Source of the DNA: a virus
Lineage: Duplodnaviria > Caudoviricetes
IMG/VR virus record: IMGVR_UViG_3300031992_000031
Location: 32,001 to 96,000 of that record
Reading direction: 5' to 3' (one strand)
Length of the DNA: 64,000 bases
Every line of letters begins with the position of its first letter. Position 1 is the first letter of the stretch. The notes beneath the pieces were generated by a model. It saw nothing but the letters and a program-made list of their open reading frames with translations, searched no databases and was not told the origin of the DNA. Position numbers and translations under genes: made by a program. Positions 1,864 to 1,982 of the stretch are shown here, one piece after another.

Positions 1864-1982
1864 GGCCCGGTAGCTCAGTTGGCAGAGCATGCGGCTGGTC
1901 CGATACGTTCGGTCTTAGATAGGTTCAACTCCTATATCGGAAATTAACCGCAGTGTCCTAGGTTCGAGCCCTAGTCGGGCCG
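1864..1982 (+). tRNA. tRNA-Asn(GTT) interrupted by a 46-nt tRNA-like insert (1898-1943) in the anticodon
   Basis: Acceptor GGCCCGG/TCGGGCC, D-arm TAGCTCAGTTGGCAGAGC, anticodon stem TGCGG/CCGCA, T-arm CTAGG TTCGAGC CCTAG. Removing 1898-1943 gives loop CT-GTT-AA. Confidence 0.85.

Follow-up and report, generated by a model that had tools for sequence, protein, structure and literature searches.

A tRNA-shaped insert in the anticodon of a phage tRNA-Asn gene and its possible removal by tRNA end-maturation nucleases

How could a tRNA gene whose anticodon is interrupted by 46 nt yield a tRNA, and what is the interrupting segment? These questions are raised by a tRNA-Asn gene in a 64,000-nt stretch of phage DNA (hereafter the window), which corresponds to bases 32001–96000 of a 133,461-nt linear virus record that is 75% complete; the gene sits in a tRNA cluster that also holds a tmRNA and the Rfam cow-rumen-3 and -4 motifs. 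To our knowledge, tRNA introns either splice themselves out or are excised by a splicing endonuclease dedicated to the task. We consider it somewhat probable that the segment is instead an intron of a recurring phage class, tRNA-shaped from its first base to a tRNA-like 3' tail, which would be cut out by RNase P together with an RNase Z-like or other endonuclease and whose exons would be ligated by a phage enzyme.

A sequence-only reading of the locus had described a complete tRNA-Asn split between positions 34 and 35, and inspection of the sequence, Rfam and ARAGORN all bear this out. Rfam matched 1864–1982 as a single tRNA (47.2 bits), with an acceptor stem at 1864–1870/1975–1981, the discriminator at G1982 and an anticodon stem (1890–1894/1948–1952) whose loop is divided into C32-U33-G34 (1895–1897) and U35-U36-A37-A38 (1944–1947). 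The same reading held that an exact 7-nt loop is left once the insert is removed, and this was confirmed: the sequence without 1898–1943 is a perfect 73-nt cloverleaf (−30.1 kcal/mol), which ARAGORN calls as Asn(gtt). Alternative splice registers would give a GGU or AUU anticodon; the nearest intact tRNA is an Asn(GUU), which scores 50/66 and is not an exact match. Default ARAGORN misses the split gene and, when introns are allowed, miscalls it as Thr, and no other tRNA-Asn(GUU) or tRNA-Gln(UUG) was called elsewhere in the 75%-complete record. The promoter-like site just ahead of the gene would make tRNA-Asn the first in its transcript.

Table. Features of the split tRNA genes and candidate enzymes (window coordinates).
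Feature	Position	Strand	Basis or remark
Sigma-70-type promoter-like site	1804..1832	+	11/12 consensus, consensus match only; directly upstream of tRNA-Asn
tRNA-Asn 5' exon (positions 1–34, end C32-U33-G34)	1864..1897	+	Sequence, Rfam, ARAGORN
46-nt tRNA-shaped insert, between positions 34 and 35	1898..1943	+	Sequence, shuffles, covariation
tRNA-Asn 3' exon (U35 to discriminator G73; CCA not encoded)	1944..1982	+	Sequence, Rfam, ARAGORN
tRNA-Gln(UUG) split at 34/35	13301..13457	+	Unrelated 86-nt insert at 13334–13419, with 2-nt tail
Polynucleotide kinase domain	15653..16129	+	PF13671; phrog_505; candidate end-healing
Phosphoesterase	16130..16696	+	phrog_547; candidate end-healing
ATP-dependent RNA ligase	22428..23651	+	PF09414 and PF21189; phrog_968; candidate sealing, involvement inferred

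The insert resembles the top half of a tRNA. Its acceptor (1898–1904/1936–1942) comprises six Watson-Crick pairs and a G·A mismatch at pair 1–72, which the sequence-only reading, otherwise right about the acceptor and T-arm, had left unmentioned; the remainder consists of a 14-nt linker (1905–1918), a T-stem (1919–1923/1931–1935) with its T-loop (1924–1930) and a single 3' A1943. With 11 of 12 pairs in the acceptor/T-stem stack, a 7-nt T-loop, C56 and R57, the unit has the features of RNase P substrates. Its nested-structure score of 14.0 was reached by none of 2000 shuffles (mean 8.3, maximum 12.7). Folding energy, by contrast, was not significant (z of −0.65 for the insert and −1.4 for the whole), and the nested fold lies 1.5 kcal/mol above the minimum free energy structure, so that the case for it rests on covariation and not on energy.

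Group I introns occur in bacterial anticodon loops, the location shared by archaeal and eukaryotic bulge-helix-bulge introns, and a homing-endonuclease-like gene lies 450 nt downstream of tRNA-Asn, so a degenerate intron of either kind, or a small self-splicing ribozyme, has to be weighed. The insert is only 46 nt long, however, lacks a P3–P7 catalytic core and matched no Rfam intron or ribozyme family at a threshold as loose as E 10; the last base of exon 1 is G instead of U, and that of the insert A instead of G. A bulge-helix-bulge would place the splice sites in 3-nt bulges on either side of a 4-bp helix, but here the two junctions lie opposite one another where the inner acceptor stem ends, and neither a splicing endonuclease (EndA; PF01974) nor RtcB was found in the record. 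A link between the insert and the downstream GIY-YIG gene was also considered and dropped, since its close orthologs adjoin intact tRNA-Asn genes only and none of 13 insert loci. We therefore regard these explanations as very improbable and largely refuted, in agreement with the sequence-only reading, which had set group I and bulge-helix-bulge introns aside. The GIY-YIG/NUMOD1 endonuclease gene itself (2430–3257) is preceded by ~250 nt of apparently structured non-coding sequence (2155–2400) with no Rfam match, and the motif CGGTATATAAAGA recurs near 2311, 4593 and 4707.

The phage relatives of this locus show that the insert is one of many. Eighty related loci, from phages of up to ~200 kb, were retrieved via a neighbouring 181-aa protein; no isolated relative of this phage was found in a search of INPHARED. 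A first detector sought tRNA genes with 25–130 extra bases in the anticodon loop while ignoring insert structure, and for each of the 34 distinct inserts that it yielded, the score for an inner acceptor plus T-arm was no lower than 10.8, which is the 99th percentile of shuffles. Later, wider passes demanded inner structure, and the passes combined gave 33 distinct inserts (clustered at 88%) of 43–116 nt with eight anticodons (Asn 12, Gln 5, Ile 5, Lys 4, Leu 2, Thr 2, Pro 2 and Glu 1), at 34/35 in 23, 35/36 in eight and 36/37 in two, all counts being of inserts related by descent and not of independent events. The second case in the window, in tRNA-Gln, carries a near-complete tRNA-like unit unrelated to the tRNA-Asn insert, and the spliced form of this gene has exactly the sequence of a tRNA-Gln that is intact in a related phage. 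The class also recurs in unrelated phages: outside the clade set, in phages whose tRNA-Asn body differs, the Asn anticodon is interrupted by another tRNA-shaped insert, of 51 nt.

Among the 59 clade loci with tRNA-Asn, 13 have an insert and 46 an intact gene only, and at least one insert is present in 12 of 24 near-complete genomes. An intact tRNA of the same anticodon accompanies the insert gene at two of the 13 Asn-insert loci and for one of 19 inserts in the 12 near-complete genomes, suggesting that the split gene as a rule takes the place of the intact one; together with the exact presence/absence alleles found in the class, this supports the earlier view of the insert as an intron-like element. 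Shared units in different tRNA types, namely an acceptor and ACCA tail common to Asn in locus L047 and Gln in L034, and another unit common to Lys in L046 and Ile in L042, suggest that inserts have moved from one tRNA gene to another. In some inserts the acceptor is tmRNA/tRNA-Ala-like (L046:11781, L042:2053, L052:654 and L059:12362), with G3·U70 in L046 and L042, an ACCA tail, and a GGCAG T-loop in three, suggesting an origin from the tRNA-like domain of tmRNA. A pattern scan of 185,579 GTDB genomes, using the narrow pattern of an Asn 34/35 insert starting with G, returned 41 matches, only one of them real (a fragment of this phage clade) and none chromosomal, and wider viral and metagenome pattern scans gave mostly chance matches plus clade members. 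Long nuclease-carrying inserts (140–2500 nt) were absent from the loci examined with a strict detector limited to type I hosts. In another phage group, tRNA-like genes adjoining the split tRNA-Asn (L004:4281–4384 and L011:14475–14616) have extra anticodon-arm segments of 30 and 48 nt that are not tRNA-shaped.

The sequence-only reading had proposed a search of related phages for variable inserts keeping the acceptor/T-arm fold, and such inserts, which retain it by compensatory change, were found. When the 11 Asn 34/35 mini-inserts were aligned by MAFFT without structure, RNAalifold recovered the inner acceptor/T stack, with both-sided changes at six of ten inner-stem pairs and a seventh changing pair inside the T-loop, while the linker was free to vary in length and sequence. 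In these 11 inserts 128 of 132 stem cells pair, a figure inflated by the register being chosen by the script. Two inserts that are otherwise near-identical differ by a G-C to A-U swap (L231). Across 35 inner top halves, G53-C61 is invariant, C56 is present in 34 and position 57 is always a purine. Inner units have lost D and anticodon arms but retained the acceptor, G53-C61, C56 and R57, that is, features of the acceptor/T-arm half of tRNA that RNase P and tRNase Z recognise (PMC3978253).

The 5' boundary of the inserts always fits position +1 of the inner tRNA, as for an RNase P-like cut. When the 5' cut was set at +1 and the loop restored to 7 nt, 40 of 44 genes yielded the same anticodon as their nearest intact tRNA, and in nine the joined exons were identical to natural tRNAs without an intron. 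The loop length is a premise of this calculation, but the agreement of anticodons and the exact matches are not. The 3' boundary is less regular, lying 4 nt after inner position 72 in 24 of the 33 inserts (18 NCCA, four NCAA, one ACTA and one AAGT), 2 nt after it in six and 1 nt in three. With tails of 1, 2 and 4 nt, no 3' nuclease acting as a fixed ruler fits all inserts. A '−1 cut plus cut after 73' rule for the 2-nt tails worked for the Gln insert but gave wrong anticodons, relative to the nearest intact tRNAs, for L031 and L032, and was rejected. In the MAFFT alignment a 3-nt gap falls right before the last two A's of the tRNA-Asn insert, and 2-nt gaps in its relatives with 2-nt tails; (C/A)A is conserved before the 3' junction in Asn inserts, and the near-identical inserts of L183 and L051 differ by ACCA versus ACAA. 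From these alignments, the ancestral insert most likely extended from +1 through CCA; the tRNA-Asn insert, whose end lacks CCA and whose first pair is G·A, looks like a derived, shortened form that has lost 3 nt from an NCCA/NCAA tail, which weakens the argument from a perfect fit to a cut after position 73.

RNase P leaves a 3'-OH upstream of its cut and RNase Z a 5'-phosphate downstream, and such ends are joined by ATP-dependent ligases. In the route that we favour, host RNase P would read the inner acceptor/T-arm stack and cut after G34 to leave a 3'-OH on exon 1, a second endonuclease would cut where the tail ends (after A1943 in this gene) to leave a 5'-phosphate on exon 2, and a phage ATP-dependent RNA ligase would join the exons, held by the anticodon stem, into tRNA-Asn(GUU). 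The inner leader and trailer consist of three and four unpaired bases, respectively, tethered by the outer anticodon stem, and this arrangement may hinder RNase P. Such a unit would likely have originated when a mature tRNA or tmRNA-like molecule, with its 5'-phosphate and CCA-3'-OH, was ligated into a cut anticodon loop and entered DNA, thereafter shrinking to the part that is read by the processing enzymes.

Of the earlier proposal that ordinary maturation nucleases excise the intron, the 5' half accords with the inner +1 boundary; the 3' half, a cut after N73 by the Bacillota RNase Z rule for CCA-less ends, suits the tRNA-Asn insert but only three of the 33, given the 18 NCCA and six 2-nt tails. 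In vitro, RNase Z cuts after the discriminator in CCA-less precursors, generating a 3'-OH, and after CCA in CCA-containing ones; CCA slows the Bacillus subtilis enzyme by up to 1520-fold with Mg2+, but for archaeal RNase Z, and for the B. subtilis enzyme supplied with Co2+, the main cut falls immediately 3' of CCA (PMC7479834). An RNase Z-type enzyme that cleaved behind either N73 or CCA would account for 21 of the 33 inserts, including that of tRNA-Asn (three 1-nt tails and 18 NCCA), but not for 2-nt or NCAA/NCTA tails. Because 12 of the 33 tails thus fit neither of its known rules, RNase Z is less certain, and its assignment as the 3' nuclease is tentative, being rather doubtful than probable.

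A different nuclease might instead make both cuts, with subsequent end healing. Kinase and phosphoesterase genes lie 2 kb past the tRNA cluster and would be superfluous for RNase P and RNase Z ends, and the variable 3' tail and (C/A)A before the junction suggest a 3' cut that is not measured from the inner T-arm. We nevertheless judge this unlikely: searches of the record for candidates gave no match (PF12706, PF01974 and RF00011), insertion sites vary among 34/35, 35/36 and 36/37 yet always fit the inner +1, and both kinase and ligase belong to the usual repertoire of anti-defence repair. RNase Z, RNase P RNA (type B), a CCA-adding PolyA_pol domain and Rnl1 likewise gave no match in the 75%-complete record, and RtcB was found in none of 50 related records. 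A nucleotidyltransferase match at window 18436–19239 is weak (phrog_388, 1.9e-7), and Pfam detects no PolyA_pol/CCA-adding domain there. An ATP-dependent RNA ligase is encoded in 12 of 12 insert-bearing and nine of 12 other near-complete genomes, a difference that is not significant (p ~ 0.2, by hand with phrog_968) among genomes that are also related; an apparent association with PF09414 only (p 0.027) disappeared once phrog_968 was used. Ligase distribution is thus compatible with a role in splicing but not discriminating.

We find it similarly improbable that the outer tRNA is never rejoined, the boundaries being a fossil of insertion and the product a released mini-tRNA or a split or unspliced tRNA, either acting as a decoy against defences that target tRNAs or persisting as tolerated junk. 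The stretch from +1 to CCA has the exact ends of a mature tRNA, so that origin alone explains the boundaries; tails decay from NCCA to NCAA, AA and A; exact intronless alleles indicate recent gain or loss rather than long-term selection; and the host has its own tRNA-Asn. Phage tRNAs may moreover be dispensable, so that an unspliced gene need not be lethal. On the other hand, inner stems still covary after loss of the D and anticodon arms, although a decoy role would likewise preserve the inner fold; exons are flawless and always rebuild a sensible anticodon that matches the tRNA body; and the split gene generally occupies the place of the intact one, in a class that recurs in unrelated phages.

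The sequence-only reading knew of no description of this type, but Devoto 2019 had reported the first introns in phage tRNAs, 'enigmatic' non-group-I introns in the anticodon loops of Lak megaphage tRNAs, with alleles lacking them and with a Thr intron that 'may encode a tRNA', proposing no mechanism and mentioning neither splicing nor a ligase (PMC6784885, Fig. 4, Table S6). This was the only such report returned by our searches for nested or tRNA-like introns, most subscription papers lying outside their reach. Like the Lak introns, the tRNA-Asn insert places a tRNA-like unit in a phage anticodon loop and belongs to a class with intronless alleles. Read by eye, the four Lak introns taken from Table S6 all end in a T-arm and acceptor-like stem, and those in that table measure 79–114 nt, sit near 37/38 and have ~25–30 extra nt before the inner unit. 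The tRNA-Asn insert, unlike them, begins directly with inner +1, interrupts the loop at 34/35 and, at 46 nt, retains only a top half; as compared by eye with Table S6, it appears to have neither the Lak layout, with its extra 5' segment, nor homology. It is best filed as a minimal form of a barely described kind, and the splicing route would be new if shown.

Other known systems share parts of this route. In T4-type tRNA repair (Pnkp plus an ATP-dependent RNA ligase), phage kinase, phosphoesterase and ligase reseal anticodon loops, and all three gene types occur in this record; such repair mends a single nuclease break, however, and we know of no programmed removal of an insert by it. Small tRNA-like units also direct RNase P and RNase Z cuts inside longer RNAs in mascRNA/menRNA and in tRNA punctuation, which are eukaryotic or organellar and in which, unlike in the proposed route, the flanks are not rejoined. 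An Rfam RF01684 match in the insert region was not significant (16.9 bits versus a cut-off of 42.5). In the circularly permuted tRNAs of red and green algae and Thermofilum, the recognised tRNA is the product kept and its flanks are discarded (PMC3978253). The proposed route would do the reverse, ligating the flanks and discarding the unit that is recognised.

Several further RNA elements occur in the record. A circularly permuted tRNA-like unit in a stem-closed scaffold, with the T-arm and 3' acceptor strand preceding the 5' acceptor strand and D-arm, lies just before the window (genome 31544–31670; L001:9545–9670) and matches YrlA (Y RNA-like) weakly (39.2 bits versus a cut-off of 69); a DUF2828/DUF7788/vWA protein (window 16811–18346) may be its Ro60-like partner. 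A stem scaffold in which CAGCAA follows the 5' strand and the cargo varies recurs at window 4074–4142 and 12766–12826 and at genome 30954–31019 and 31544–31670, below Rfam thresholds, and similar scaffolds occur in related loci, some enclosing T-arm-containing pieces. A stand-alone stretch in the tRNA cluster (window 12946–13098) has no Rfam match, and we take it to resemble the L11-binding (GTPase-associated) domain of 23S rRNA. Unusual tRNAs comprise a Thr with an AGT anticodon, an Ile(GAT) with A at position 32 and an Ile with a TAT anticodon (window 8218–8291, 10609–10689; genome 30734–30807). TAG is read through in some genes of the record, which a tRNA with a CUA anticodon, a long variable arm and a weak tRNA-Sec match (genome 23445–23532; L001:1446–1533) would fit. 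One 2.1-kb fragment of the phage clade was binned in an Acutalibacteraceae MAG, a weak hint of a host among Clostridia.

Standard annotation misses or miscalls such split tRNAs. Whether they hold a separate class of introns that mimic tRNAs, would be removed by tRNA end-maturation nucleases with sealing by a phage ATP-dependent RNA ligase, and are mobile between tRNA genes of different anticodons, is in our view an evenly balanced question. If they are spliced as their shape suggests, enzymes that trim tRNA ends would serve as a splicing machine. Were the proposal true, phage tRNA maturation would depend on a ligase and the anticodon loop would be hidden in the precursor, the 'enigmatic' phage tRNA introns of 2019 would be explained, and a common phage RNA ligase would gain a programmed job beyond repair.
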